From Eledone cirrhosa (taxonomy: Eukaryota): 64,000 bases of DNA. The notes beneath the pieces were generated by a model. That model was given only the letters and a program-made list of their open reading frames with translations. It did no database searches and was not told the DNA's origin. Position 1 is the stretch's first letter. Every line of letters starts with the position of its first letter. The stretch lies in assembly GCA_964016885.1 (NCBI GenBank), contig OZ024740.1, forward strand, positions 126,480,001-126,544,000, written 5' to 3'. Both the position numbers and the translations under genes were made by a program. Positions 3,323-58,835 of this stretch are shown piece by piece.

Positions 3323-5052
3323 AGATAGATTGATAGATAGATAGCAAGTGAGAGAGAGAGAGGGGGAAGAGTGCGAGAGAGGGGGGAGAGAGAGAGGGAG
3401 AGAGAGAAAGAAAGAGAGAGAGAGAGATCGTTAAATTGGTAAATGTCATTGGCAACATAAAGGAATTTTGAAATGTGTAACGCGCATTCCAATGCAAATC
3501 AGAAATAATATCTGAAATCAATGTCATTTTTTTTCTGTGTGGGTGGATGGAGCATAATATACATAACACCTTGCAAATTTAGAATCAATGCATACACAGT
3601 ATCTCTGCATTACAAATGCAGTAATTACCGTAAATAATCTATTTAACACTCCATTATGCAACTTCGTCTCCAACTACACCCACAAAAAAACCCTAAAAAA
3701 CACAACATACAAATTACTCTCTTTGTACCAACATTTATCAAAAGATAATGAAAACAGACATAAATCTACCGATTAGAACAAACAGAAAGACAAAGACACT
3801 AGCCACCCGAGTGGAGACAAGCACATTAGCACAACACACTCTTAAAATATGATTTTCATTAACAACCAGAGAAGAAAATAAAACGTTTTAACCTCCATAA
3901 AATATTTACTACAACAATTCTTTGACAATCTTCTCATAGCATTTATTGAGGTTTTGATAGTTTCTCTACACTTTTGTTTTTGCTCTGATTGCTATTTCTT
4001 CATTGCATTTAATTGTCATGTTTCCTTTTCATCCTTTCAACAATGACCTTTATACTCCGCCCCACAAGTGACGGACGTGGCTGAAGTTAACTCAAATTAT
4101 TTGGTTAAATTTTCATTTCAAAATGTGATAGTTTGAGCTTGATCATTTGGCTTTTTACCAAGTAATAAGAATGAGGAGTAGTGGACCATATGTACCCGAT
4201 TGTACGAAAAGATTGTCTTCCGGCAACTATTCGTATACCAGGATTCTTTCCTTCCGTATATAGTCAATATAGCTTACACACCGAACGAGATATCCCTAAT
4301 ATGCAACGGATACATCAAGATGGTTGTCAAATGCACTAGTACGAAATCATTCCAAAACTTCCACATCGAAAACAGCAACCTAAATTCTCTCACCAATTAT
4401 CGTGAGGCCAATGCACTGACTATGAAAACAAGGACACTACGCAGGTCTACTGATAGTATATTATACCTAGAGCTTCACTATTTCAATGAGAGAAGAATCG
4501 CAACTCTCCGACAAGCTATCCGTAGCGACTTAGAACTGGTGAACTCGGACCCCTCACGAAATCTACTTTCGAAATCCCAGCATGTAAATAACAATAAAAT
4601 ATAAATATTGTCTAACCGACCCATCAACAGCGCATACATGTGCAAGATATCGGATGTGGCTTACCGGATCACCTGCAGAAGCTGTGGTAGCTCATAATTT
4701 GGAACAATTTTCCGGATGTTGCTCGATAAAGGAACAGGAATGTTGTTGCATCCCCTTTCATATGACACAGGGGAGAAATGTAACAAGCGAGGCATTGAGA
4801 TCACTCATCATAAAAGCTGAGAAATTCCTTATTAATAACATGCATTAGGCACAAACAATTAATAGATTGAAACTAAAGAGTTGCTGGTGAGATATATTTA
4901 AAAAAAATATATTTTATAATCCTTTTATCCCAGTACTATCTTTATATTTCTAACCTAACTGTACCCGCTTCCCAAGTACTCAATTAGTTTGTACAGACAC
5001 ACTCACACGCACATACACACATAATCACAAATACACACACACACATACACAC

Positions 5053-5093
<41 letters not shown>

Positions 5094-5096
<3 letters not shown>

Positions 5097-5590
5097 GAGT
5101 GAAGAATAACACTGATAAGCTGTACAGTTGTGTTTATTCCAAGTATTAACAAATCATTCATTGGTCCGGTGTGTCTGAAAATCGATATCTGCGGTGCTGC
5201 TTTGACATCCATTTACATACTGTTATCAACAGCCAAATTATCAAAATACTGTATTTTAATAATTTGGCTGGTGAGAACAGTACTTAAAGTCGGATGTCAA
5301 AGCAGCACCACTGGTAGCGGTTTTTAGATACACCGGGCTAATTAAACATTTGTTAATACTTGGAATAAACCCTACTTATAACTTTTCGATGTTATTCTTC
5401 ACTCGTTCACTATTAATACTCCACTTACCTACAAACTATCGGGAATCAGCCAGCCGAACACCACAACTAGGTAAACATCTTGTCGAGTTAAACAACGCCG
5501 CACGTTAGAATCATCCACTGTACAGATTGCTCATAATCTTTACTTGGATTACCAAATACGAAAGCTTATTTACTTAAATGCATACATATA
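5094..5590. mobile_element. Palindromic PLE/retrozyme end with two head-to-head HHRs
   Basis: Arms 5094-5249 and 5251-5405 are inverted about position 5250. The right arm continues as a tail. (TA)n flanks on both sides. Confidence 0.75.
5142..5250 (-). ncRNA. Hammerhead ribozyme, U3-A8 core, long stem II, GAAA decayed to GAAT
   Basis: Minus strand AGTATT-TTGATAA-TTTGG...CCAAT-GAAT-GATTTG-TT-AATACT, with a 6-bp stem I. Confidence 0.65.
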
Positions 5591-6181
5591 TATATATAGT
5601 AATAATAATAAATTTGAAGTCTAAAATCCAAAGAGGGCTTGATAAGGATAAATATATATCAAATATATTAGTTTGTACAGACACACACTCACACGCACAT
5701 ACACACACAATCACAAATACAAACACACACATACAAACATGTATATATATATATATATAAGAGTGAAGAATAACACGGATAAGCTGTACAGTTGTGTTTA
5801 TTCCAAGTATTCGGTTTCCTAGTTAGGATTTTAGTCTACGACTTCAGCTATACCATTTATGTGGTTTTGTCTTTGCGTGCAATTGTTCCCCACGCTCCAC
5901 ATATGACGTATTATCTTCGTTTTATTCCGTTCATTGCCAGAGAACGTCTCTATGAACCACCTAAGAGAACATTAGTCTACGACTTCTTTTATACCATAAA
6001 CGTGGTTCTGTCTTTGCGCGTAATTGTTTTTCACCGCTCCTATTAAAAGACGTATATATTCGTTTTTTCCCGTTCTTTGCCAGGGAACGTTTCCACGAAC
6101 CAAAGTATCGTCTTCCTGTCTTCCTCCGATTGCAACGTTTTTTTGAAATATCCACTTCTGCGTTTACAGATTGACTTTGTT

Positions 6182-6232
6182 AGTTTCAGAAGATCCCGTT
6201 AAGGGTGAAAGCAGCGATTCTTTGCTTAAACT
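6182..6232 (+). ncRNA. Type-I hammerhead ribozyme with CAGAAGA (U4A) core
   Basis: AGTTT-CAGAAGA-TCCCGTTAAGGGT-GAAA-GCA.GCGATTCTT.TGC-TT-AAACT; all three stems pair. Confidence 0.75.
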
Positions 6233-6386
6233 TTAATCTGTTATTTTAATATATATTTGCTCTACGGTTCTTATAGATTTGATATATATTTATCCTTATC
6301 GAGCCCTCTTTGGATTTTAGTCTTCAAATTTATTATTATTACTATTTGGCTCCCTCGGTTGAGCACTCTATTGACTTATATTCATC

Positions 6387-8515
6387 ATGCAGAAACAACA
6401 TCTGAATATTTCTACAAACAACATACCCGTACCAAGCAGGGAAACATACCTAAAACTCGTGATACAGAAAACAGACGCGTTCATTAAAAGGTTGCGTTGG
6501 CGTGCCTTTTATTTTGATAATCCGCAAAAAGCAGACAACAAACAGGATAAATTCGGGTTTAAAACCTATAATAACCCCCCGTTTAACCCAGCATTGCTAC
6601 CCTTCGAAAATGATGTCTTGGAACTCATACGGAGTTTCAAATTTCGGAATAGGAGCAATTCCTTCCAGCAGGACCTGAAGAATTGAATTCGTTCTATTAA
6701 GGATTCTAATGCCGTGCACGTCCATTCCGACAAAACTGGCAACCTATATCAAGTGGAGCGCAGTACTTACCAACAACTACTACATAATGCTGTAACTAAG
6801 GATTACCGTAAAACTAATCGGTGCGTCATAAATGAAATCAACGATGCTGGGTTTAAAATCACCTCTGATCTCAACATCCTGGACCGGACCGAACCTCTGG
6901 ATCCTATTTCTCCCCACTTTACCCTGAAGGATCACAAATCCAATTTTCCGAACAACCTCTCTATTCGGCTTATTAACCCTACGAAGTCCGATTTAGGTAG
7001 ACTTAGTAAAAGGATTCTTGATAGAATTATACCAGAAATTAAAATGTTGGCCCCTCTTGCACTGTGGAACAATTCTTTCGTGGTGATTGATTGGTTCAAC
7101 GGCATATGCAACAAGGAATTTTGCCGTTTTATCCAATTCGACATCAACAATTACTACTCCTCCATCATTTTACCACTTCTCCTTAGAGCTATCAATTTCG
7201 CTAAAACACTCACAGTGGTTAAGGATTTCGAGGTTGATGTCATCCTCAATGCCCGTAAGTCGGTGATTAATTTCGACGACTCTATTTGGATAAAAAAATC
7301 CAATAGTACCACATTCGACGTGAGTATGGGCGCCAGCGATTCTGCGGAGGTTACCGATCTTATCGGCCTTTTCCTTCTTTTCTCTATCAAGGACGAATTC
7401 CCCAACGCGGGCGGTGGTTTGTACCGTGATGATGGTCTTTTGACCATGACTAAGTGCGGACCTCTTGCTTGCGACTGGTTCAGAAAAGAACTCACAGCCT
7501 TCTTTAAAGGCTTCAACCTCTCTATACAGGTTTAGGCCAATCTCTCGGTCGTTAATTACCTCGACGTTACCCTCAATTTATCGAATGGGTTGTATTACCC
7601 GTATAGAAAGCCGAATGATACGCTTAATTACATAAGTAAGGATTCCAAATTTCCTGCCAGCATAACCAAGAACCTTGGAAGAAACGTTTCGTTGAGGCTT
7701 TCCCGTCTATCTACTAACGAGCATATTTTCAACGACCATTCCAATTATTACAATGAAGTTCTTGCTCGGAGTGGATTTGTCGATAAGGTAGCATATACAG
7801 AGTACGAAAATAGACCTAGAAGAAATAGATCCCGTCGCATTTGTTGGTATAACCCACCATATAATATGGAGGTGACCACACCATTAGCTAAGATCTTTAT
7901 TTCCCTTATTACGAAGCATTTTCCCCCTACACATAAACATAGTAACATTTTTAATAGAAATACTATTAAAATGTCTTACTCTACGACTCCTAACCTTGCA
8001 CATAACATAACAGTTTCAAATTTCGCTAAACTACATAGCCGTAGGAACACGTGCAACCCTGTAGTTAGTACTAACTGTAATTGTAGGAATCGGGTTGATT
8101 GACCCCTATCCGGGAAATGCCTCTCTAGTAACATCGTCTACAAATGTAGGTTGAAACACCCACGTCCCGTAGGGCCTATATAGGGTTAACCGCCAATAGA
8201 TTCAAGCAGCGTCTTTACATGCATACCCATTTTTTTCGTTACCCGCTAAGAAGGAATATGACGTCACTTTCAGCTTATATCTGGAGTCTAAAAGACAACC
8301 ACCCCCAATATAAGTTACACTGGGAAATCCTAGCTAGGGCTAGATCGTATAACGGAAATAAAAGACCATGTGACCTCTGCGCCGCTGAGTCCCTGGAAAT
8401 ACTCTACGCCACAGACCACATCTTAAACAAAAAATCTGAGGCAATTTCAGCTTGTAAACATAAATTGCACAAAACTTTCCTGTATTACAGCCTCACGCTA
8501 TACCCTAACGGATAG
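6387..8515 (+). pseudogene. PLE reverse transcriptase + C-terminal GIY-YIG endonuclease, disrupted
   Basis: Motifs TLKDHK..RLINPTKSDLG, FIQFDI, FDVSMGASDSAEV, GLYRDDGL, WYNPPY, NCNCR, YIG, CDLC..E. Stops at 6684, 7533 and 8100, plus a frameshift near 8150. Confidence 0.9.
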
Positions 8516-9351
8516 TACGATCTAAACGTGGATATTTTACGTCTTGATGTGGTAGCTAAGTATATGTTTTGTTTATACCATTACTTATTTGCATAGGTAA
8601 GTATATATTACCTGTATGTTTTGTGAAGGCACGTATACTTTCTCATACGTATATTTGATTGTATATGTTATGGCGTATAATTTTATATATATTCTGGTAT
8701 ATATGGTTTGCTTATGTGTATACGGGAGTTTTGCGTCTGTGTGAGTATGCAGGTTCGTACGTATGTAGGGTGTGTGTATATGTGTACTTCAATATTTTGG
8801 TTGACTTACGTCTCCGAACATTTGTGTATTTACATGTAGGTATGTGTGTGCGCTTGTTATATACGTATTTATTTATATACGTTTATTTAATTATTTATTT
8901 ATTTGTATACACGCACACACACACACATATCTATATATGCGTGGTTTTGTATACCTATGGCAAGTGTTTTCGCATATGCTTGTGTATGTACGTATTTGCA
9001 TGCGTGTATGTATTTATTTAATTTCTATTACCTCTGCATTGTATTTTATTTACTTTATTCTTAACTCTGAAGCGGAGATTCATTCGGTTTCCTAGTTAGA
9101 ATTTTAGTCTACGACTTCAGCTATACCATTTACGTGGTTTTGTCTTTGTGTGCAATTGTTCTCTACGCTCCATATATGACGTATTTCCCGGTTCTGTCTT
9201 TGCGCGTAATTGTTTTTCACCGCTCCTATTATATTCGTTTTTTCCCGTTCTTTGCCAGCGAACGTTTCCACGAACCAAAGTATCGTGTTTCTGTCTTCCT
9301 CCGGTTGCAACGTTTTTTGAAATATCCACTTCTGCGTTTACAGATTGACTT

Positions 9352-9401
9352 AGTTTCAGAAGATCCGTTAAGGGTGAAAGCAGCGATTCTTTGCTTAAAC
9401 T
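9352..9401 (+). ncRNA. Second copy of family A HHR (3' pLTR)
   Basis: Same motif as 6182-6232 with a 1-nt deletion in stem II. Confidence 0.7.
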
Positions 9402-9431
9402 TTAATCTGTTATTTTAATATATATATATAT

Positions 9432-9905
9432 AGAGAGAGTTTTAATATAGATGAGATTCTACAGGACTAGAACTGTTTCATTCTTTAGAAATCATCAGGA
9501 ATCTGGCTTTCCAAAAATAAATGTTGTGGTATTTATATCTGTTCAGGTGGTAGGAGGGGGTGGGGTGTGTGATGGATGGAGGTCATTGGTTGAAAGAAAA
9601 GGGAATTCATTATATTTAGAGTGACAAAGGCAGAAAGAATTCTATAAACAAGTTCAGAATGGTGTGCCACTCCTTATTTTTAAGTTTCTCTTATCTCTTA
9701 ATCTAACAATGCCTATATTTCAGGTGTCTATAAGATGGTTGATAAGTTTAAAGAAAAGGAAAAATTGTTTAAAAGCTAATTCTTTAAAGCTCTACTTAGA
9801 GTGACAAAGGCCAAGATAATTCTATAAACCGTTTCAAAATATTGGGTGCCTATCATATCATTATTGTCATATTTCTCTTAAGCTATATTCCAGGTGTCAA
9901 CAGAC
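9432..9905 (-). mobile_element. HHR-bearing PLE/retrozyme 3' fragment with an internal ~180-bp-period duplication
   Basis: HHR at 9454-9504. Repeats at 9616-9730 and 9796-9900. The same family occurs at 35761-35915. Confidence 0.55.
9454..9504 (-). ncRNA. Type-I hammerhead ribozyme, canonical core
   Basis: Minus strand AGATTC-CTGATGA-TTTCTAAAGAAT-GAAA-CAG.TTCTAGTC.CTG-TA-GAATCT. Confidence 0.85.
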
Positions 9906-22545: not shown

Positions 22546-22625
22546 TAATAATAATAATAATAAGATCCCGTTAAGGGTGAAAGCAGCGATTCTTTGCTTA
22601 AACTTTAATCTGTTATTTTAATAAA
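22546..22625. mobile_element. Minimal two-armed insertion of PLE family A
   Basis: TAGTAATAATA (start of the inverted tail) followed by AAGATCCCGTTAAGGGTGAAAGC...ATTTTAATAA, within (TA)n. Confidence 0.75.
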
Positions 22626-29593: not shown

Positions 29594-30508
29594 CATGAGA
29601 AAAGATATATTGCAAATGTATTTACGTGTGCGTGCAAATATGTTATTAATGTGTGTGCCAACATGTACAGCATAAGAAAGCGAACCACAAAATGTTTGTG
29701 TATAATTTACATATATTTACAAACAATTAATTTGCCTGATTATAATATTTTTCAATAGTTATTAATATAATTATTTATTTAAATGCACAGTTTTTCTTAT
29801 ATAGACTGATGTACAATGCGTATTTGTGTATGATTTCAAGTAGGCAACGTTACCTAGTGTGTGTAATATAATTGTAATTATCAACAGATATAAATGTATA
29901 TTTTTATATAAGTAAATGTGTACGTATTTGCGTTGTACAATTGATCCTGGCTAATTGCTTGTGTTTATTTTGTGTTTATCTGAGTGGTGCTTTATCTGAA
30001 GGCTACACACATTCCTATATAATGATGTTGCACTTCTGTTGTTCCTCTTCGCTTTCTTCCTCCAGACATAGAAACATTAGTATACTGTGTTAGTAATGAT
30101 GGTGGTGGAGGTGGTGGTATGGTGACAGTGATATTCAGTTGGTTGTGATGATGATGTGCTATATGTTGTAATTGTACAAGGGTGATAGCATTTTGCTTTT
30201 ATCGTCGTTTTATTTGTTGCTACAAATGTCGTTTTCGACATAAAAAAGAGATTGTCAGATATAATTATAAAATGTGGAGAAGAAGCACACGAGTTGGAAT
30301 ATATATATATATGTAAATAGGGAGAACAAAACGATTATTATGAAGAAAAATATTGTTGTCTTATTTTTTTCTCTTTTTTCTGGGTTAGAAAATGTTTAAA
30401 ACAAAATATTTTACTTTGTGTGAAGTGTTAAGTTATTAGTTAATTTATTTTCTTAATTAACAATAGCATTGATTGATTTATTTATCAATGTATTTATTTG
30501 ATAATTGT

Positions 30509-30659: not shown

Positions 30660-31560
30660 ACCAGCAAGGTTTGTAGGAGGTAGGGGCGAGTGATGCCTTC
30701 TTTTCTTGGTATGTGGGGAGTATTGTTTTTTTTTGTTGTTGTTGGTTATTGTGTGATGTTTGGGTGGTGATTGGGTTTTCTTATTATTTTGGTTTTAGTA
30801 AAGGGTTTCTTGGATGTGTGTTCTTTTTGGAAAAGTGTTTCATAGTTAGAGAACCACGTTACGTTATATCCCGAGGTTGAAGGGATTTTAATTCTTCCTT
30901 ATTAAAGTCCTCTATCTATAGTTATGAAATATTTTCTAGGCTGGTGTCTTTGGTTTTATTGATAATTGCTTGATTTATCTTATCGTCGTTGATTTGATCC
31001 TATCTTCATTTGCTTTGGCTTTCAATATAAGGAGTTCAATTTCGGCTTTCATGTTATCAAGTGCCATTCTTTCTCTGAAGCGTCTTTCTGTCTCAGGTTC
31101 ATTTGGGATGGATTTAATTTGTAGTTTGCGGGGAAGGATTAATGGGGATGAGTTAAACCATTTTTCATAGATCTCTGCTTTGTTATTATTTTGTATCATC
31201 TTCCAAAAGGAGAGTTTCCAGTTTTTAAGTGATGTGTACCATTGTGGTATTAATTTGTTTTTTATTTGGTAAGTTGTAAGTGTATTAATGTCATGTGTTT
31301 CCTCGTCTGCTTGAATAGGATTTGTTGTTATTCAGGTGTTTTTTATTGTTTCACCAAAGTTGTTGATATTGTCGTGATTTCATAGGATGTGTGTTTGGGG
31401 ATTGTTTCTTCACTTGTAGAATTAATTTTGTTGGCGATTATTGACAAATTAGAGTTTATTTTTTGTAGTTCTTGGAGTATCTCTTGATTGATGTTAATGA
31501 GAGTGGAGTCTGTTCTTGTTTTAGTAGGTATTTTCTGTATCTCGTGTGGGAGTAAATAAT
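30660..31560 (-). pseudogene. Disrupted ORF for a predicted alpha-helical protein of unknown function (~280-300 aa)
   Basis: Joined fragments read ..QEILQELQKINSNL.. / KNKLIPQWYTSLKNWKLSFWKMIQNNNKAEIYEKW..PLILPRKLQIK.IPNEPETERRFRERMALDNMKAEIELL.. / ..EELKS..WFSNYE.., then a basic, Pro-rich tail. Confidence 0.55.
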
Positions 31561-32139
31561 AATTATAAAATGTAGAGAAGCAGCACACGAGTTGGAACAT
31601 ATATATATATGTAAATAGGGAGAAAAAAACAATTATTAGGAAGAAAAATATTTTTTTCCTTTATTTTTTTTCTCTGTTTTCTGGGTTAGAAAATGTTTAA
31701 AAAGAAAATATTTTACTTATAAATGTTGTTGTTGGAAGGTGCACAATTGGCGATATGTTCACTAAAAACAATCTTTCTGTATTCCTGTATTTATATATAT
31801 ACATATAATAAACAATTGATGATTACATAAATATGAAAAGGAAAGATAAAAGCAAGGACTCAAAGGCGTCAGAAGAGGAGGACGGGGAGGGAGAGGTATT
31901 AATGGGCTGTGGACCCAGGGCGAGGCATTGTTCATGCTGCGCCACGTGGAAGAAAAAACTGCATAAAATCTTCCGTGGCGAATGGCTAGTCTCAGCTTCA
32001 GCAACAGCCAGTCCACCTATATATATGTATATATACAAATATAAATTAGCGAGAATCGTATTTCGGCTATTGGAAATTTGCGAAAAACAACTTCCGAGAT
32101 GTGTGGCAAGCGCTCAATAGATTCTAACGAACCAGATGC

Positions 32140-32879: not shown

Positions 32880-34620
32880 AGTAATAATAATAAATTTGAA
32901 GACTAAAATCCAAAGAGGGCTCGATAAGGATAAATATATATCAAATATATAAGAACCGTAGAGCAAATATTTATTAAAATAACAGATTAAAGTTTAAGCA
33001 AAGAATCGCTGCTTTCACCCTTAACGGGATGTTCTGAAACTAACAAAGTCAGTCTGTAAACGCAGAAGTGGATATTTCAAAAAACGTTGCAACCGGAGGA
33101 AGACAGAAAGACGATACTTTGGTTCGTGGAAACGTTCGCTGGCAAAGAACGGGAAAAAACGAATATAATACGTCATTAACAGGAGCGGTGAAAAACAATT
33201 ACGCGCAAAGACAGAACCACATTTATGGTATAAAAGAGGTCGTAGACTAATGTTCTCTTAGGTGGTTCATAGAGACGTTCTCTGGCAATGACGAAAAATA
33301 CGAAGATAATACGTCATATGTGGAGCGTGGAGAACAATAGCACGCAAAGACAAAACCTCGTAAATGGTATAGCAGAAGTCGTAGACTAAAATTCTAACTA
33401 GGAGACCGAATGAATCTCCGCTACAGAGTTAAGAACAAAGTAAATACATACAATACAGAAGTAATAGAAATAAATAAATACATACACGCAAACAAATACG
33501 TACATACACAAGCATACGCAAACCACGTACCATAGGTATACAAAACCACGCACATATAAATATCTGTGTGTGTGTATGCGTGTATACACATAAATAAATA
33601 ATTATATAAACGTATATAAATAAATAAATACGTATATAACAAGCGAACACACATACCTACATGTAAATACACGAATGTTCGGAGACGTAAGTCAACCAAA
33701 ACATGAAGTACACATATACACACACCCTACATACGTACGAACCTGCATACTCACACAGACGCAAGACTCCCGTATACACATAGCCAAACCATATGTACCA
33801 GAATATATTAAATTATACACCATAACATAAACAATCAAATATACGTACGAGAAGGTATACGTACCTTCACAAAACATACGGGTAATATATACTTACCTAT
33901 GCAAATAAGTAATGGTATAAACAAAACATATACTTAGCTCCCACATCAAGACGTAAAATATCCACGTATAGATCGTACTATCCGTTAGGGTATAACGTGG
34001 GGATGTAATACAGGAAGGTTTTGTGCAATTTATGTTTACAAGCCGAAATTGCCTCAGATATTTTGTTTAAGATGTAGTCTGTGGCGTAGAGTATTTCAAG
34101 GGCCTCAGCGGCGCAGAGGTCACATTGTCTTTTATTTCCGTTATACGATCTAGTCCTAGCTAGGATCTCCCAGTGTAACTTATATTGGGTGTGGTTGTCT
34201 TTTAGACTCCAGATATAAGCTGAAAGTGACGTCATATTCCTTCTTAGAGGGTAACGAAAAGAATGGCTATGCATGTAAAGACGCTGCTTAAATCTATTGG
34301 CGGTTAACCCTATGTAGGCCCTACGGGACGTGGGTGTTTCGACCTTACATCTGTAGACAATGTTACTAGAGAAGCATTTCCCGGTTCTGTCTTTGCGCGT
34401 AATTGTTTTTCACCGCTCCTATTATATTCGTTTTTTTCCCGTTCTTTGCCACCGAACGTTCCCACGAACCAAAGTATCGTCTTCCAGTCTTCCTCCGGTT
34501 GCAACGTTTTTTGAAATATCCACTTCTGCGTTTACAGATCGACTTTGTTAGTTTCAGAAGATCCCGTTAAGGGTCAAAGCAGCGATTCTTTGCTTAAACT
34601 TTAATCTGTTATTTTAATAA
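32880..34620 (-). mobile_element. PLE family A, second insertion (inverted arms)
   Basis: Left arm 32880-34384 is the reverse complement of the GIY-YIG end, UTR, pLTR and tail. Right arm 34376-34620 is the forward pLTR. HHRs at 32991-33041 (-) and 34550-34600 (+) each carry a core mutation. Confidence 0.92.
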
Positions 34621-34711
<91 letters not shown>

Positions 34712-34716
<5 letters not shown>

Positions 34717-35690
34717 AACTAATATATCTACCAACACATGTACACAGAAACATACCCACGCTAGCAAATATCTATGTTTTGTCTTAGTAACTTTGCGGTT
34801 CTATGCAAGGGGATGCAGAACAATTATATGAAAGACGTGAACAAGAAAATTATAAAAATCGACTTACTTACTAAAGTTTCACTCCAACCAATTAGCCTCT
34901 ATAAGGGAATAAATATGGTTACGGAGCGTACCCACAGAGAAACCCTACGTCGCCAGGGAGTCTATTCTCAGCTAAGCTTCCAGGCAATGCGAGGACACTG
35001 GGAACTTATATAAAAATAATTCAGTGGATGGAAAAAAGCGAGCGGGGACCAAATTCCAAGACACCGAAAAAATTCACCGCCCACCTGGTCAGCGGCAGAC
35101 CCAAAAGAACCAATCACGTGACACCGAGGTCAATCAGCGAGGAGTGGGGTGCCATTAAGACAAGGGCCTAGCCACTACCATGAACCATAGTAGTAATCCC
35201 GGCAAGTTTTGCTCAACAAATAATTTGGAGATAATTATAAAGAACTAGTATATCTACCAACACATGTACACAGATGCATACCCACGCTAGCAAATATATA
35301 TGTTTTGTCTTAGCAACTTTGCGGTTCAATGCAAGGGGATGCAGAACAATTATATGAAAGACGTAAATAAGAATATTATACCCCACTACTCGCTGATTGA
35401 CCTCGGTGTCACGTGGTTGGTTCTTTTGGGTCTGCCGCTGACCAGGTGGGCGGTGAATTTTTTCGGTGTCTCGGAGTTTGGTCCCCGCTCGCTTTTTTCC
35501 ATCCACTGAATTATTTTTATATAAGTTCCCAGTGTCCTCGCATTGCCTGGAAGCTTAGCTGAGAATAGACTCCCTGGTAACGTAGGGTTTCTCTGTGGGT
35601 ACGCTCCGTAACCATATTTATTCCCTTACAGAGTCTAATTGGTTGGAGTGAAACTTTAGTAAGTCGATTTTCATAATTTTCTTATTTACG

Positions 35691-39137: not shown

Positions 39138-42100
39138 TTGTCTGTCAGAAATAGAAAAATCATTTACGAAACTACGCTGGAGCATCAAAACAAAAACAAA
39201 AGCAACGATATACGCACACACATATACAACACACATCCCAACAACAACAGACACACAGACACAAACAACAATAACAACAACAATAGCAACATACCCAGAT
39301 ACAACAACAACAATAGCAACATACCCAGATACAACAGACACGCAGACACAAACAACAATAACAACACACACGGAGACAACAATAACAACAACACACACAT
39401 CAACAACAACAACAATAGCAACATACCCAGATACAACAACAACAGACACGCAAACACAAACAACAATAACAACACACACAACAACGATAACACACACACA
39501 CACGGAGACAACAACAACACACATCAACAACAACACACATCAACAACAACAACACACACGCATTCAATGCCTCTCACCACCACCACAATCTTAACAAACA
39601 CACAGACACAGAAAACAAGTAATGACAGTAGCACAGAAATCAGAGAAATAAGAGAAAGTAATAGGATTAAAAGGAAAAGGAGATGGGAGACTAAGGACAA
39701 AGAGAATAACCAAGACGAACACACAGACACACAAAATAGGGTAGATAACAACATTGAGCCAGTGGAAAGAGACAGGAGTATTTATGAGAGACATAGAAAC
39801 AACCATGAAGCTGAGGCTGCTGCTGTTGGTGGAAATAGAAACAACACAACTAACAATAACAATAGCACTAGTACACATAAAGCAGCAGCCTGGAACTCTC
39901 CGATTTATAACCCCTCCGATAAATCATTCGACCTACGACGAGTCCACGCCACGACTTTGCCATTTAACAAACGCACGCAGTTGCCGTCGCAGGTCGATGA
40001 ACAAACAGAAGCACAATTTAGTATAGCTAAATCCGAACTTAGAAATATTATAGAACAGTATAGCAAGAAGCATAATAGAATAGAGGCCCAGCAACTGGGA
40101 GAAGAATCTGCAAATGGCTTGCGTAAGCTCATGCAGCGCTCGCGTAATGGAGAGATAGCATGCTTTCCAACAGACAAGTCTGGCAGAATGTCGGTTGACA
40201 GCCTGCCAAACTACATCCAGGCAATGCAACCCCACATCACTAACACAAGAGAGGTAACACCACAGGAGCATGAGGATAGAGAAAAAACCCTCAATGCCCA
40301 TATGGTGATGTGGACAAATATAATGCAGCCCAACAAAAGGACTGCCAACAACTTCCAGGCCTGGAACAATGACGTGCCGGCGTTGTATGGGCTTCGAAAA
40401 GACCATAAAACGGGCTGGGACCCTGTCGCGGGACCACCAACACGGCCAGTCTGTGGGGCTAACATTGCTAGTAACTACAGACTGTCCTACTTCCTCTCCC
40501 TGATCATACGCCCCATCATTGAGATGTCCCCAGATGTGTGTGACAGCACGGAGGACCTCCTCAGCAGAATCCGCGCGGGTAACCGATCTGGGGACCTAAC
40601 AAACTGCATAATAGGCAGTATGGATGTTGTGTCCCTGTATCCATCTATTGACGTGGATTTTGCTGTGGAGAAATGCGTCGAAATGATCAGCGAGAGCAAG
40701 GTTGAGTTCCGTGGGATTGATACCAGTGAGCTGGGACTTCTACTTAAGCTTACCCATAGTAATAGTTACCTAGACACTTATGACCTTAGCAACCTGTGCC
40801 CTACAAGACCAGCAAGAGGCAGACCACCTACCATTACCTCAATGGCCAAGAAAACCCACACAGATAGATGGAACGGGTGGACCAGAGCCATACGGACACC
40901 CGAAAACCACGATGAACTGAAGAAAATGATTGCACATGCGGTAGGGGCCAGCATAAAATTAACCCTTAAGGAACATATGTTCAAATTTAATGGTAAAACA
41001 TATGCCCAAGAGGAAGGAGCAGCCAGTGGTGTTAGCATTGCAGGCGACATAGCTAAGTTATTCATGGTATGGTGGGACAGTAGAGTTAAACAAAAACTTA
41101 ATGAACAATTAGAAGACAGCTTAACCCTGATATTGTACTCCCGCTACGTAGATGATATAAACATCGTAGTTAAGACACCCCCACTAAAGAACAGTCAGGA
41201 ACTAGAGAAAAACACAATGGAAAGCATCCAGCAAATAGCAAACTCCATCCACCAGAGCATTAGAGTTACTATAGACTACCCAAGTAGACACCCCAACCAT
41301 CGATTACCTGTACTAGACACAGAGCTCTGGTTAGATACAATTAACAACCAAAAACAAATCCTCCATTCCCATTATGCCAAACCCATGACTTCCAAACATC
41401 TGATCCACCGAAACTCGGCCATTTCGGACCATACCAAAATCAACATACTGATTGCGGATTTGGTACGGGTGATGAGAAATGTGCCCCGCATGTGCAACCC
41501 CGAAGAACTAGAGAGACACATACAACACTTCATCCACCGTATGCAGTTCTCTGGCTACAATCAGAGAGATAGAATCAGAGTGTATACAGGAGCCAGAACC
41601 AAATGGGAAAAAATGGTAAATAATGACATAAATGGGACCTGCCCCTTGTATAGGAGCAAATTTTGGAATAGAATAGAAAGAACTAAGAACAAGGCCAATA
41701 GAATAAACTCATGGTATGATATCAATAAATACCAGAGTGTAATGTTCATCAATACAACCCCTAGAGGCGAACTAGCCTACAAATTTAGAAGGGCCCTAAA
41801 GAAACATAATCTCAATATTAAGATAGTAGAAAGACCTGGTACCTCCGTAAAAACACTTATTAGCAAGACATACCCGTTCCAAAGACCCTCATGTATAGAT
41901 AAGAAATGTATAACCTGTAAAATAAGCCCCCATATTAACTGTAAAACTAGAAATGTAGTATATAGCATAAGATGTACTGAAGGACAATGTAGAAACAAAA
42001 ATATAGTGTACATAGGTGAGACAGCTCGTAGTATAGGGGAACGAATAAATGAACACTGGCGAAACCTCCAAGATAATAAAGAATCATCTGTGCTCTACCA

Positions 42101-42275
42101 ACATGCTAAGATAGAACACAGGGGTAAATTAGAGAGCATAGAAATAAAAATAGAATCCACACACAAGAAAGACGCAATGTTTAGGCAAATTACAGAGGCA
42201 GTAAGCATAAAAGAATTAAAACCAAAATTAAATAGAAAATATGAGTGGAATAGCAACATCACAACTTACAATTAA
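39138..42275 (+). CDS. PLE polyprotein (Asn/Thr/His-rich repeat region, RT, thumb, Zn-linker, GIY-YIG); 5'-truncated open frame
   Basis: Motifs PTDKSG, LYGLRKDHK, PTRPVC, GSMDVVSLYPSI, YAQEEG, RYVDD, LPVLD, C..CITC..CK.RNVVYSIRC...C...YIGETARSIGERINEH, H...EH, RQITEA. Confidence 0.93.
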   Translation: MSVRNRKIIYETTLEHQNKNKSNDIRTHIYNTHPNNNRHTDTNNNNNNNSNIPRYNNNNSNIPRYNRHADTNNNNNTHGDNNNNNTHINNNNNSNIPRYNNNRHANTNNNNNTHNNDNTHTHGDNNNTHQQQHTSTTTTHTHSMPLTTTTILTNTQTQKTSNDSSTEIREIRESNRIKRKRRWETKDKENNQDEHTDTQNRVDNNIEPVERDRSIYERHRNNHEAEAAAVGGNRNNTTNNNNSTSTHKAAAWNSPIYNPSDKSFDLRRVHATTLPFNKRTQLPSQVDEQTEAQFSIAKSELRNIIEQYSKKHNRIEAQQLGEESANGLRKLMQRSRNGEIACFPTDKSGRMSVDSLPNYIQAMQPHITNTREVTPQEHEDREKTLNAHMVMWTNIMQPNKRTANNFQAWNNDVPALYGLRKDHKTGWDPVAGPPTRPVCGANIASNYRLSYFLSLIIRPIIEMSPDVCDSTEDLLSRIRAGNRSGDLTNCIIGSMDVVSLYPSIDVDFAVEKCVEMISESKVEFRGIDTSELGLLLKLTHSNSYLDTYDLSNLCPTRPARGRPPTITSMAKKTHTDRWNGWTRAIRTPENHDELKKMIAHAVGASIKLTLKEHMFKFNGKTYAQEEGAASGVSIAGDIAKLFMVWWDSRVKQKLNEQLEDSLTLILYSRYVDDINIVVKTPPLKNSQELEKNTMESIQQIANSIHQSIRVTIDYPSRHPNHRLPVLDTELWLDTINNQKQILHSHYAKPMTSKHLIHRNSAISDHTKINILIADLVRVMRNVPRMCNPEELERHIQHFIHRMQFSGYNQRDRIRVYTGARTKWEKMVNNDINGTCPLYRSKFWNRIERTKNKANRINSWYDINKYQSVMFINTTPRGELAYKFRRALKKHNLNIKIVERPGTSVKTLISKTYPFQRPSCIDKKCITCKISPHINCKTRNVVYSIRCTEGQCRNKNIVYIGETARSIGERINEHWRNLQDNKESSVLYQHAKIEHRGKLESIEIKIESTHKKDAMFRQITEAVSIKELKPKLNRKYEWNSNITTYN

Positions 42276-45735: not shown

Positions 45736-45954
45736 ATGTTGAAAAGGTAACATACCAGAGAGAGATATACAGTGCGCTATCAATAAAAGAGGGAAAAAAC
45801 CACCAGTGTATGGAATCTATAACATATGTAAAGCAGACAATAAACACGATAATTAAAAATATAAATGAAAGCGTAAATAAATACCTATATAACTATATAA
45901 CACACGTACAAATCCAAAGAGATGTTTCGCCAGTAATTTGTTGAAAGAAATGGA

Positions 45955-46251
45955 ATAACCTCGGTTCATCAGCGTGTGTAAGGCTACACTAAGAGAATTT
46001 TAAAAGTGACTGTCCAGCTACACGTGGGAGAGAGAAGTCACAGCGTGTTTAAGGGCAGTGAACCAGTGGCCTCTGAGGGGCGAGCTGCTAGAAAGGGCAG
46101 CCCAAAACCACTCAGAGAAGTGTGCTCAACCAAACAGAGTGATAGGAAAGACTGTTATAAGGAGCGAAATATCACGATAAATTAACGGAGCCATAGGCCC
46201 TCGCCATTCCCTCAGAGTGAATGGCGAGGGCCTATGGCTCCGTTAATTTAT

Positions 46252-47668: not shown

Positions 47669-48776
47669 TTCGGGTAAACATTGATGCAATTCAATTCAGG
47701 CACTCAACGTACTTATTCCACATAGGAGTGACGGAGTAAATATCGAATACGGAAAAGCGAAGTATTTTCAGATGTTCAAGTCTTTTAATAATAAGGCTGT
47801 GATATATATTTCAATGGCGACAGTGGCAACACTGTACCGTGCGCCAGTTCTGCGACATCGTCAGACAGCTTGTTACATAATAAGGTTATGTTTCCGAGGC
47901 AATCCAAATTGAATCGACATGGGAACGGACGAAGTGTGTGCTCTTGGGTTCTTCATCCATTCTCCTGTGAGTACGAATTCACACCCACCGGTCTGCGCAG
48001 GCTCATGTCCGAAGGAATTTGACCATTAGCTGCCGCAGATTTCAACGAAATTCGCTTAGTCAATTCCCCCTCTAAGCCAAACAATGACCCATTCAGGCCT
48101 GTAATATTGCTTACTGAAAAATTATTAGTTTTTAATTGTTAATTTTTAATTTCTAATTTTTAATATTTAATATTTGATTTCTGATTTTCGATTTTAAATT
48201 TTAATTTTTAGTTCTAATTTCCAACTCTCATTCATAACTTCCACCGTGAAACCATGATACATAGAATTAAGTATATTTTCTTAGAGGTTGATGGTCAATT
48301 ATTCTGTCCATTTTTAATGAGAGGTGGTATTCAGACCTGTAGATATACACACTCTCCCATCCCCACTGGCTTTCGACTGACAGCCACAGACGGGGTGGGT
48401 AGCAGTAAGCAACATTACAAGCCTGAATGGGTCATTGTTTGGCTGAATGGGGGAACTGACTAAGCGAATTTCTTTGAAATCTGCGGTAGCTAATGGTCAA
48501 CTTCCTTCGAACCTGCGCTTGCGCAGACCGGTGGGGGTGAATTGGTGCTCACAGGGGAATGGATGAAGAAGCCAAGAGCACAAACTTCGTCCGTTCCCAT
48601 GTCGATTCAATTTGGATTGCCTCGGAAACATAACCTTATTATGTAACAAGCTGTCTGACGATGTCGCGACACTGGCGCATGGAACAGTGTGGCCACTATC
48701 GCCATTGAAATATATATCACAGCCTTATAATTAAAATACTTGAACATCTGAAAATACTTCGCTTTTCCTTATTCTA
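47668..48776. mobile_element. Non-coding palindromic HHR element
   Basis: 47745-48105 is the reverse complement of about 48415-48775. The left arm has a ~75-bp tail. Confidence 0.88.
48650..48723 (+). ncRNA. Hammerhead ribozyme (CTGACGA core, ATATATAT palindromic stem III); mirror copy at 47796-47869 (-)
   Basis: GCTGT-CTGACGA-TGTCGCGA...TCGCCATT-GAAA-TATATA-TC-ACAGC. Confidence 0.82.
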
Positions 48777-48796
48777 TATATATATATATATATATA

Positions 48797-52900: not shown

Positions 52901-53284
52901 AACTGTAATTCGAATAGCTAATAAAGATGACGTAAGTATGTAACAAAGTTTTCGCCAGGCGGCCATAAATTTGCACCATAGATGTAACTTTTTCCAAGTA
53001 AGAAAATGAGGGTATATTTTGTCTACTAAATGTTGTTAAAAGATTAAATATATTATTTAAATATTCACATCTTTAAAATGTTCAAATATCAACACTTCTG
53101 GTTATACGACATTCCTCTCTCCTTCCTAGTCTGTCTGTTTAGATAGATACATAGCTATGACGTCTAGCCCTTATAATATGTCTCTGTATGTCTGTATGTC
53201 TGCATTTTGAAAACCATTCTGTATAATGACTTAGCTATCTGTGTGTGTGTATGTATATATGTATATTAGGTGTGTATATATATT

Positions 53285-53338
<54 letters not shown>

Positions 53339-53633
53339 TTAGTATCATAAATAAGAGAGTTTAATTTGTACATGTATGTATATATTTATACGTATATATA
53401 CATACATAAACACGTTATTTACAGTTGTATAAAAAAAGAACTATAATTGTTTCTACTTTTGGCACAAGGCCAGCAATTATCCAGAACATTACTGGTACTT
53501 TATTATATATAATACCACATTCCTCTCTCTTTCTTACTATGTCTTTTTAGATAGATACATAGCTATAACGTCGCGTATTTATAATATCTCTCTGTATGAC
53601 CGTCTGTCTGCATTGACTTCGCTTCTAGCCAAC

Positions 53634-58298: not shown

Positions 58299-58822
58299 TG
58301 TGTAGATAAATCTACCAAAAGTTTACGGTAGTGTCCAATCCGTATGAAGAACTCAATGTAATCCGGATATCATGAAAAGAGAAGATGCATTCAAAAACTA
58401 CTTTCGGTGAAAAATAAACGGAAAACAGAGTCAAGATGAATTAATAAAATAATGAATAAACAAAGAAACAGTTCCTTATATTAAAAAAAATTCCTCATTT
58501 TACGATCGTTTCTAGGATATATATGTGTTAGAGTTGGTATGCATATTCTATAGATCTATGTACAATATTTATACAAACTATCAGAGGGAATATACATACA
58601 AACACATATATATGCTGTCTTCAGAAATATTATTTCTGAAGACAGCATATATATGTGTAGGTATGTATATTCCCTCTGATAGTTTGTATAAATATTGTAC
58701 ATAGATCTATAGAATATGCATACCAACTCTAACACATATATATCCTAGAAACGATCGTAAAATGAGGAATTTTTTTTAATATAAGGAACTGTTTCTTTGT
58801 TTATTCATTATTTTATTAATTT
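58297..58822. mobile_element. Near-perfect palindrome (arms 58439-58629 and 58631-58821) of two head-to-head HHRs, PLE family C
   Basis: Centre TCAGAAATA-T-TATTTCTGA. HHR reads CTGAAGA...GAAA-CGATCG-TA-AAATGAGGAA. The left arm has a ~140-bp tail. Confidence 0.9.
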
Positions 58823-58835
58823 ATATATATATATA

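Follow-up and report, generated by a model that had tools for sequence, protein, structure and literature searches.

Junction patches in retrotransposons, the capture of host DNA by Penelope-like elements (PLEs; PMC3846280), hammerheads of the U3-A8 type and R2 junctions that record a ribozyme cut (PMC3774820) are already known from the literature, which is cited here for the parts of its text that were available. In L1 retrotransposition, templated insertions of less than 250 bp are found near the target, beside twin-priming inversions, and SDSA-like synthesis on DNA has been proposed for them (10.1101/2024.08.27.596794). Direct-repeat patches made by Pol theta arise from the opposite resected end (PMC7165422). 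A PLE protein was found to cut and extend both strands, to prefer ATT, to use uncleaved RNA and to need no hammerhead cleavage, and RNA reads ending at the cut site were absent for this PLE (PMC11167929). The U3-A8 hammerhead variant was already described in PLEs (PMC4209133) and is, together with a U10.1-U11.1 mismatch, a known tolerated natural variant (PMC3088659); single monomeric minimal hammerheads gave no cleavage (PMC4209133). Whether PLE hammerheads cleave in vivo is an open question in PMC4209133, PMC8557442 and PMC11167929, and the available text of PMC8782182 contains nothing on PLE hammerheads in vivo.

We analysed a junction in a 64,000-nt stretch of DNA (the window), to whose positions all coordinates refer (Table 1). 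It lies within an insertion of family A, whose motifs point to a PLE resembling the Hydra clade. The translated A protein contains RWR (RWK-like), DKT and a CxC-X5 linker with a stop at the place of the third cysteine, and it has 103 relatives of 503-953 aa. The marks of the Hydra clade are an RWK-like motif, DKT, a CxCX5C linker and a single ORF with RT followed by GIY-YIG (PMC8557442, available part). The (TA)n targets of family A and the hammerhead motif of its pseudo-LTR (pLTR), at 6182-6232 with A in place of U4, also fit this clade, whereas the repeat unit of ~3.3 kb contrasts with the 'generally under 3 kb' of Hydra-clade elements. Pfam assigned none of the four A ORF pieces, nor the piece at 4182, to a family; in the scan of 30 proteins, 5 had matches, all in other elements. 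The A insertion is arranged head-to-head, with a 73-nt inverted long-tail arm, the filler studied here and then a full unit reaching 9432. The 3' ends of A, at 6256 and 6345, both lead into (AT)n (143 and 131 contigs in run X1).

Table 1. Features of the patched junction, its neighbourhood and further local duplications in the window
Feature	Positions	Strand	Remarks
Filler donor	4983-5147	+	CA-rich flank 4983-5055; family B (TA)n target ~5056-5096; last 51 nt of inverted B arm
Family B inverted (short-tail) arm	5097-5249	-	16% diverged from other arm; ends in (TA)n
Type I minimal hammerhead motif	5143-5249	-	From descriptor scan; H17 at 5148
Family B direct arm	5251-5585	+	Long tail to ~5585; second hammerhead copy, H17 at 5354
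(AT)n target and inverted left arm of A	5586-5668	-	Last 73 nt of long-tail 3' end (A 6345 to 6273)
Filler	5667-5811	+	Direct copy of 4983-5147; microhomology AT (left) and ATT (right)
A upstream pLTR	5809-6345	+	Hammerhead motif: stem I from 6182, core 6187-6193, H17 at 6227
A RT and GIY-YIG ORF	6375-8515	+	Broken by stops and a frameshift
A downstream pLTR pieces	9082-9432	+	End at short tail in (AT)n
Local duplication	31559-31718		From 30261-30416; beside repeat-derived sequence
Local duplication	35236-35380		From 34710-34854; beside repeat-derived sequence
Local duplication	53512-53614		From 53104-53206; beside repeat-derived sequence

Two further observations were made on the copies of family A. 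All four full window copies of the A hammerhead (6182-6232, 9352-9401, 34550-34600 and 33050-33005) have a core with A for U4 (CAGAAGA; CAGAACA at 33 kb), with no majority difference at this place among the read differences listed, and family K (62125, 63674) has the same core word as A. The U4-to-A core variant is possibly found in A genome-wide. In addition, 9183-9432 and 34376-34631 share a short deletion and an identical 9-nt junction, which would be explained by one panhandle insertion split by a ~24-kb inversion between inverted A copies. When flank continuity was tested for this inversion, nothing above shuffles was found.

The filler sits precisely between the two A arms and is, in the assembly, a same-strand copy (145 bases) of DNA located 450-610 bases to its left, the donor ending ~450 nt from the (AT)n target of A. 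The first-pass annotation had described such a ~145-bp copy at 5666-5811, taken from 4984-5147; the copy is real and the coordinates were one base off. Alignment of the filler with the donor gave 138 matches and 5 substitutions in 143 aligned bases, plus one 2-nt indel in the CA-rich part and one of 22 nt in the (TA)n microsatellite, which is shorter in the filler. At the left junction AT (5667-5668) is common to the filler and the inverted arm, and at the right junction ATT (5809-5811) is common to the filler and the pLTR, the latter in agreement with the annotated 3-nt microhomology and right end at 5147. An artefact of the microsatellite was ruled out, as the right part of 51 nt, which is not repetitive, reaches a score of 48 with the donor and no more than 11 with any other place in the window. 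The left-end 14-mer of the filler occurs only twice. No poly(A) remnant or splice mark was seen in 5660-5815, although a nascent RNA would still fit.

The right part of the donor belongs to family B, an older head-to-head insertion directly left of the A insertion. Its arms differ by 25 substitutions in 153 aligned bases, and the B centre is spanned by a contig of run X2 (5111-5369) that shows 3 differing letters and 9 gap letters. Within the 51-nt overlap, 8 sites distinguish the two B arms; at 7 of them the filler agrees with the donor, and at 5113 it has a third base. Alleles at 5129, 5131 and 5122 are common to the donor and the filler and mostly absent from family B, where the family letter was A at 5129 in 388 of 393 depth, G at 5131 in 324 of 393 and A at 5122 in 227 of 393 (run X1), and was found in 230, 218 and 231 of 231 reads, respectively, with 7-10 start places, in run X12. 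Because these donor-private alleles are present in the filler, the template was the adjacent locus, and the local origin that had been proposed is borne out. Another family B copy as the source was ruled out by the private alleles and the included flank.

Divergence is 3.5% between filler and donor, 3.8% between two family A copies and 16.3% between the B arms. The filler is therefore of family A's age and was copied long after the arrival of B. These values also bear on a misassembly of this microsatellite-rich sequence. The read comparison excluded 5570-5769 and listed no record across 5811, and the best runs contain only 0.56-0.65 of the words, which leaves room for such an error; the five substitutions and two indels between copy and donor, which match the age of A, would argue against it, and we find it hardly credible.

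The end of the filler match at 5147 coincides exactly with a predicted ribozyme cut, since H17 of the minus-strand motif at 5148 places cleavage at 5148|5147. This is the match noted in the first-pass annotation, and it occurs on the strand required by RNA run-off. With the microhomology, the right breakpoint may be any of the four positions 5144-5147. A relaxed descriptor found 37 minus-strand and 31 plus-strand hammerhead-like sites in the window, giving a chance per end of 0.0006 for an exact match and 0.002 for the microhomology window; over four local copies we estimate ~0.5-2% per window. The coincidence is the main point in favour of a cleaved local RNA and is not dismissed. According to this explanation the B minus arm would be transcribed from ~5250 into the flank and the hammerhead would cut at 5148|5147; the A RT would then jump from its tail onto the cut RNA, run off its 5' end and join the long cDNA via ATT. 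Ribozyme cut sites shape R2 5' junctions (PMC3774820) and capture of read-through RNA by PLEs has been proposed (PMC3846280), as far as the available text of these sources goes. When rough, unmeasured odds are multiplied for its four conditions (an RNA template, a minimal motif that cleaves, a core that was intact and complete run-off), the explanation comes out as unlikely.

Much depends here on the state of the hammerhead. Judged from its letters, the B motif is a real family-level hammerhead motif with predicted self-cleavage. In the minus arm stem I is formed by 5249-5245 and 5147-5143, the core from U3 to A9 lies at 5244-5238 and G12 at 5159. This arm reads GAAUG where the family has GAAAC, with A15.1 (5156) and C15.2 (5155) replaced, so the local core is broken today. 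Changes of A15.1 lowered activity at least 10-fold (PMC3088659) and A15.1 mutants lost more than 100-fold (PMC4075628) in the parts of these studies that were available. The plus-arm copy is broken at G5 (5258) and G12 (5343); the family depth reaches 5581. The family letters G at 5155 and T at 5156 had 1172 and 1183 of 1196 depth in run X1, 1966 and 2012 of 2046 in X2, and 230 and 231 of 231 reads in X12, and T>G at 5343 was found in 2376 of 2461 depth (X1). As these majority letters restore GAAAC-AUUU-GUU, the 3' core is intact at the family level, with GAAAC, a 4-nt loop and a GUU triplet that is found in both arms. The comparison of family and window letters covers 40 of 262 listed differences, with no 5' core row among those 40.

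U3 and A8 are present in both B arms, the 5' core is complete in the minus arm and has A at G5 in the plus arm, and stem I measures 5-6 bp in both. Stems I and II form in the minus-arm fold and stem II is absent from the plus-arm fold (z = 0.64 and 0.41). Loop III is close to a palindrome, two U-U mismatches lying at its centre; a true palindrome is present in family D of the window. The core halves are ~80 nt apart. Rfam gave no hammerhead among 104 matches up to E = 1, and an exact search of metagenome contigs with a 23-nt stretch of family B gave 0 matches. An alternative parse of the B hammerhead begins 15 nt further on at a CUG.UGA-like word; on visual inspection it was discarded, since its partner strand is not preceded by an NUH.

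A cleaved local RNA thus has on its side the exact end on the right strand, the intact 3' core of the family, the natural tolerance of U3-A8 and the U10.1-U11.1 mismatch (PMC3088659, available part) and a minus-arm fold with stems I and II, though with z = 0.64. It requires, however, that the core change postdate the filler (0.07-0.24). The clock ratio gave 0.24 for this order (95% range 0.08-0.52) if the change was one event and 0.07 if it was two, and direct counts gave 0.20-0.25 and 0.07-0.10, respectively. A one-event origin is plausible because the change would make a short tandem repeat. On these figures the local core probably already lacked A15.1 and C15.2 when the filler was copied. 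The explanation also requires cleavage by a minimal motif, a kind that was inactive as a monomer in the available part of PMC4209133, and an internal jump on 2 nt, and the filler carries neither poly(A) nor a splice mark. Moreover, a long hairpin (-156 kcal/mol) is the predicted fold of any transcript that includes both B arms, and only a start at the palindrome centre avoids it. Upstream of the donor, at 4100-4800, we observed the decayed C-terminal part of another PLE ORF.

The ends of retrotransposon arms provide a further comparison. For families with a recognisable hammerhead we counted six arm ends of A and two each of B, young D and F; the count excludes older D copies and any family whose motif is unclear. 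None of the 12 arm 5' ends lies at the cut site, and 5 of the 12 lie within 8 nt of the stem I 5' edge (both B arms, both D arms and the piece at 22562); the 12 ends are not independent, since they come from about seven insertions. Cut sites were likewise absent among the six best-supported loose-end places of run X1 or X2, the lowest of those listed having 13 and 21 contigs, vs 274 and 306 for the two 3' ends. Both results speak against a cleaved local RNA. Among the reads, all 8 listed opposite-strand joints of A (15 of 145 joints shown) have one end at 6182-6193. This start spot carries what we take to be an initiator-like word. In 1 of these 8 joints the other end is at 6228, A's own cut site, with 3-5 nt of microhomology corresponding to stem I; snap-back of uncut cDNA would explain this joint without cleavage.

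Because arms start at the 5' edge of the ribozyme and none at the cut site, the templates appear to have been uncut. The starts at the stem I edge suggest that the RNA begins there and is copied uncut, which fits PMC11167929 (uncut RNA template) and PMC4209133 (inactive single minimal hammerhead). The head-to-head arms with such starts represent three families (5250, 58629-58631 and 22562; 6182-6193 in family A). Intact motifs with a canonical core were found in both arms of D (58436-58824) and F (47737-48782) and as singles at 9.5 kb (9460-9498) and 45.9 kb (45907-45972), none of them in Rfam; these would be better substrates for cleavage assays than family B. A 1045-codon open frame at 39138-42275 encodes a PLE RT/GIY-YIG protein with an asparagine-rich N-terminal part and no Pfam match, and this element has a 2-kb inverted arm (97%), indicating a young copy.

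An end at 5147 might also reflect a special site at which no RNA was cleaved. In one version the ATT of stem I would have been nicked in DNA by the PLE endonuclease; in the other a polymerase would have stalled at the junction of an uncut hammerhead that was folded or bound by protein, on a template of RNA or single-stranded DNA. A PLE endonuclease prefers ATT on both strands (PMC11167929), ATT is found at both partners of the right junction and again at the 9183-9185 junction, and only 16 ATT sites occur in 4983-5596. On the other hand, family A's own targets are (AT)n runs, ATT is frequent in such AT-rich DNA, and a stem should stop synthesis on entry at 5142 and not 5 nt later. We regard a special site of this kind as quite improbable.

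Similar copies exist elsewhere in the window. From a masked self-comparison, 40 repeat matches of at least 35 nt within 3 kb were listed. After inverted arms, tandem or low-complexity units, an internal pLTR repeat, a second family D copy and short or distant matches had been set aside, four local direct duplications were left, including the filler. They are 103-165 nt long, 0.4-1.3 kb apart and beside repeat-derived sequence, suggesting that local patches are common here (4 in 64 kb). Only the filler ends at a hammerhead-like site, the nearest miss among the four being 12 nt, and the other three need no ribozyme, a further point against a cleaved RNA. These three comparison copies are imperfect controls, as their donors are inferred. 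The copy at 35236-35380, initially a candidate for a clean second flank capture, was downgraded: 34713-34824 may be the long tail of element C, which makes this copy a weak control, since it may be element C's own 3' tail re-copied.

The copies beside unrelated repeats at 31559-31718 and 53512-53614 would also be in line with a later event, in which break repair or a template switch near the palindrome pasted flank DNA into an A junction that was already there; fragility of the B palindrome is conceivable. Such an event is very improbable, given that the filler lies exactly between two A arms and is of A's age.

We consider it probable that the filler arose as a patch on a DNA template during the joining of two target-primed cDNAs of a Hydra-like PLE, and that its match to the cut site is due to chance. 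An ordinary patch on a DNA template is likely because the local ribozyme is broken and the similar copies end elsewhere. This reading rests on the local origin, the same-strand orientation, the microhomologies, the age of A, the broken core and the other copies without ribozyme ends. In the sequence of steps that we propose, the A endonuclease would cut both strands of (AT)n at ~5590, and both cut ends would prime reverse transcription, producing the 73-nt left arm and the long right arm. The two cDNAs would be unable to anneal to each other because both are antisense. One free 3' end, most simply that of the right cDNA ending in AAT, could then anneal to the ATT of 5145-5147 in the left flank, which would be exposed, be extended by ~165 nt, be released and be joined to the other arm through AT. 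Position 5147 would accordingly be the landing point of synthesis and not an RNA run-off end. The polymerase, the direction of synthesis and the type of template in this scheme are inferred.

Several observations fit the DNA-templated patch less well. The end is exact and on the strand needed by RNA run-off, at the estimated frequency per window given above, and one of the 8 listed A joints reaches A's cut site at 6228. Pol theta patches (3-30 bp, PMC7165422) are shorter and closer than this tract, and the donor is more distant than in the L1 cases (within 15 bp, 10.1101/2024.08.27.596794), in the available text of both. A single-stranded flank would place 5145-5147 within the stem of the B hairpin (by RNA fold), making it a poor landing place. 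We nevertheless hold that the end at the predicted cut site is likely a matter of chance.

The first-pass annotation had seen in this junction an RT jump to a ribozyme-cut local RNA. The local origin, the family-level motif, the exact end and its strand stand; as the likeliest cause, the jump does not. The same applies to the larger claim of a fossil of in vivo cleavage by a U3-A8 hammerhead, against which the broken local core, the 0 of 12 arms at a cut site and the ribozyme-free copies speak. That a U3-A8 minimal hammerhead cleaved itself in vivo and left a genomic fossil in this junction, a Hydra-like RT having captured, during insertion, the ribozyme-cut read-through RNA of a different and older PLE family transcribed 450 bases away, seems doubtful to us. 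Were it true, the many local fillers of this genome would let one read off where RNA 5' ends lay and when PLE hammerheads cleaved, and a cleaved RNA here would be rare in vivo evidence of such cleavage. Under the preferred reading of a DNA-templated patch, the locus is one clean, allele-traced local templated patch at a PLE inversion junction, and it bears on a step of PLE integration that is still unexplained. Perhaps the more useful side result is that arms begin at the hammerhead 5' edge and not at the cut site, in keeping with an uncut RNA template.

The comparison with described systems, drawn from the available parts of the sources, is as follows. Like the L1 templated insertions, the filler is a duplicate of a nearby genomic segment of less than 250 bp inside an insertion; unlike them, the element is a PLE and the donor ends ~450 nt from the target instead of within 15 bp. 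With Pol theta insertions (PMC7165422) it has in common a direct-repeat copy of the flank, microhomologies of 2-3 nt at both ends and AT-rich DNA, whereas those are mostly 3-30 bp and near the break and the tract here is ~165 nt and 450 nt away. The B motif resembles the minimal type I hammerheads of PLEs (PMC4209133, PMC3088659) in its short stem I, long helix II region, 2-bp stem III, U3-A8 covariation and motif pairs on opposite strands. It differs from them in a near-palindromic loop III (AUUU), the triplet GUU, the ~80 nt between core halves and the fact that both local copies are broken. The idea of a genomic junction recording a ribozyme cut is that of the R2 HDV-like ribozyme (PMC3774820), where the element's own RNA, many copies and tested activity were involved; the present case would involve a single foreign RNA of local origin whose motif is broken. 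Our search, which covered neither subscription papers nor supplements, found no paper on local fillers at PLE inversion junctions. The closest relatives are complex PLE insertions in head-to-head arrangement, with tails and with host spacers captured in them (PMC3846280, PMC8557442, PMC11167929). They too have two 3' ends and (TA)n targets, an inverted arm truncated at its 5' end, palindromes where the inversion joins and captured host DNA. In contrast to these, the captured piece described here lies at the inversion junction and was traced to the adjacent flank by private alleles.
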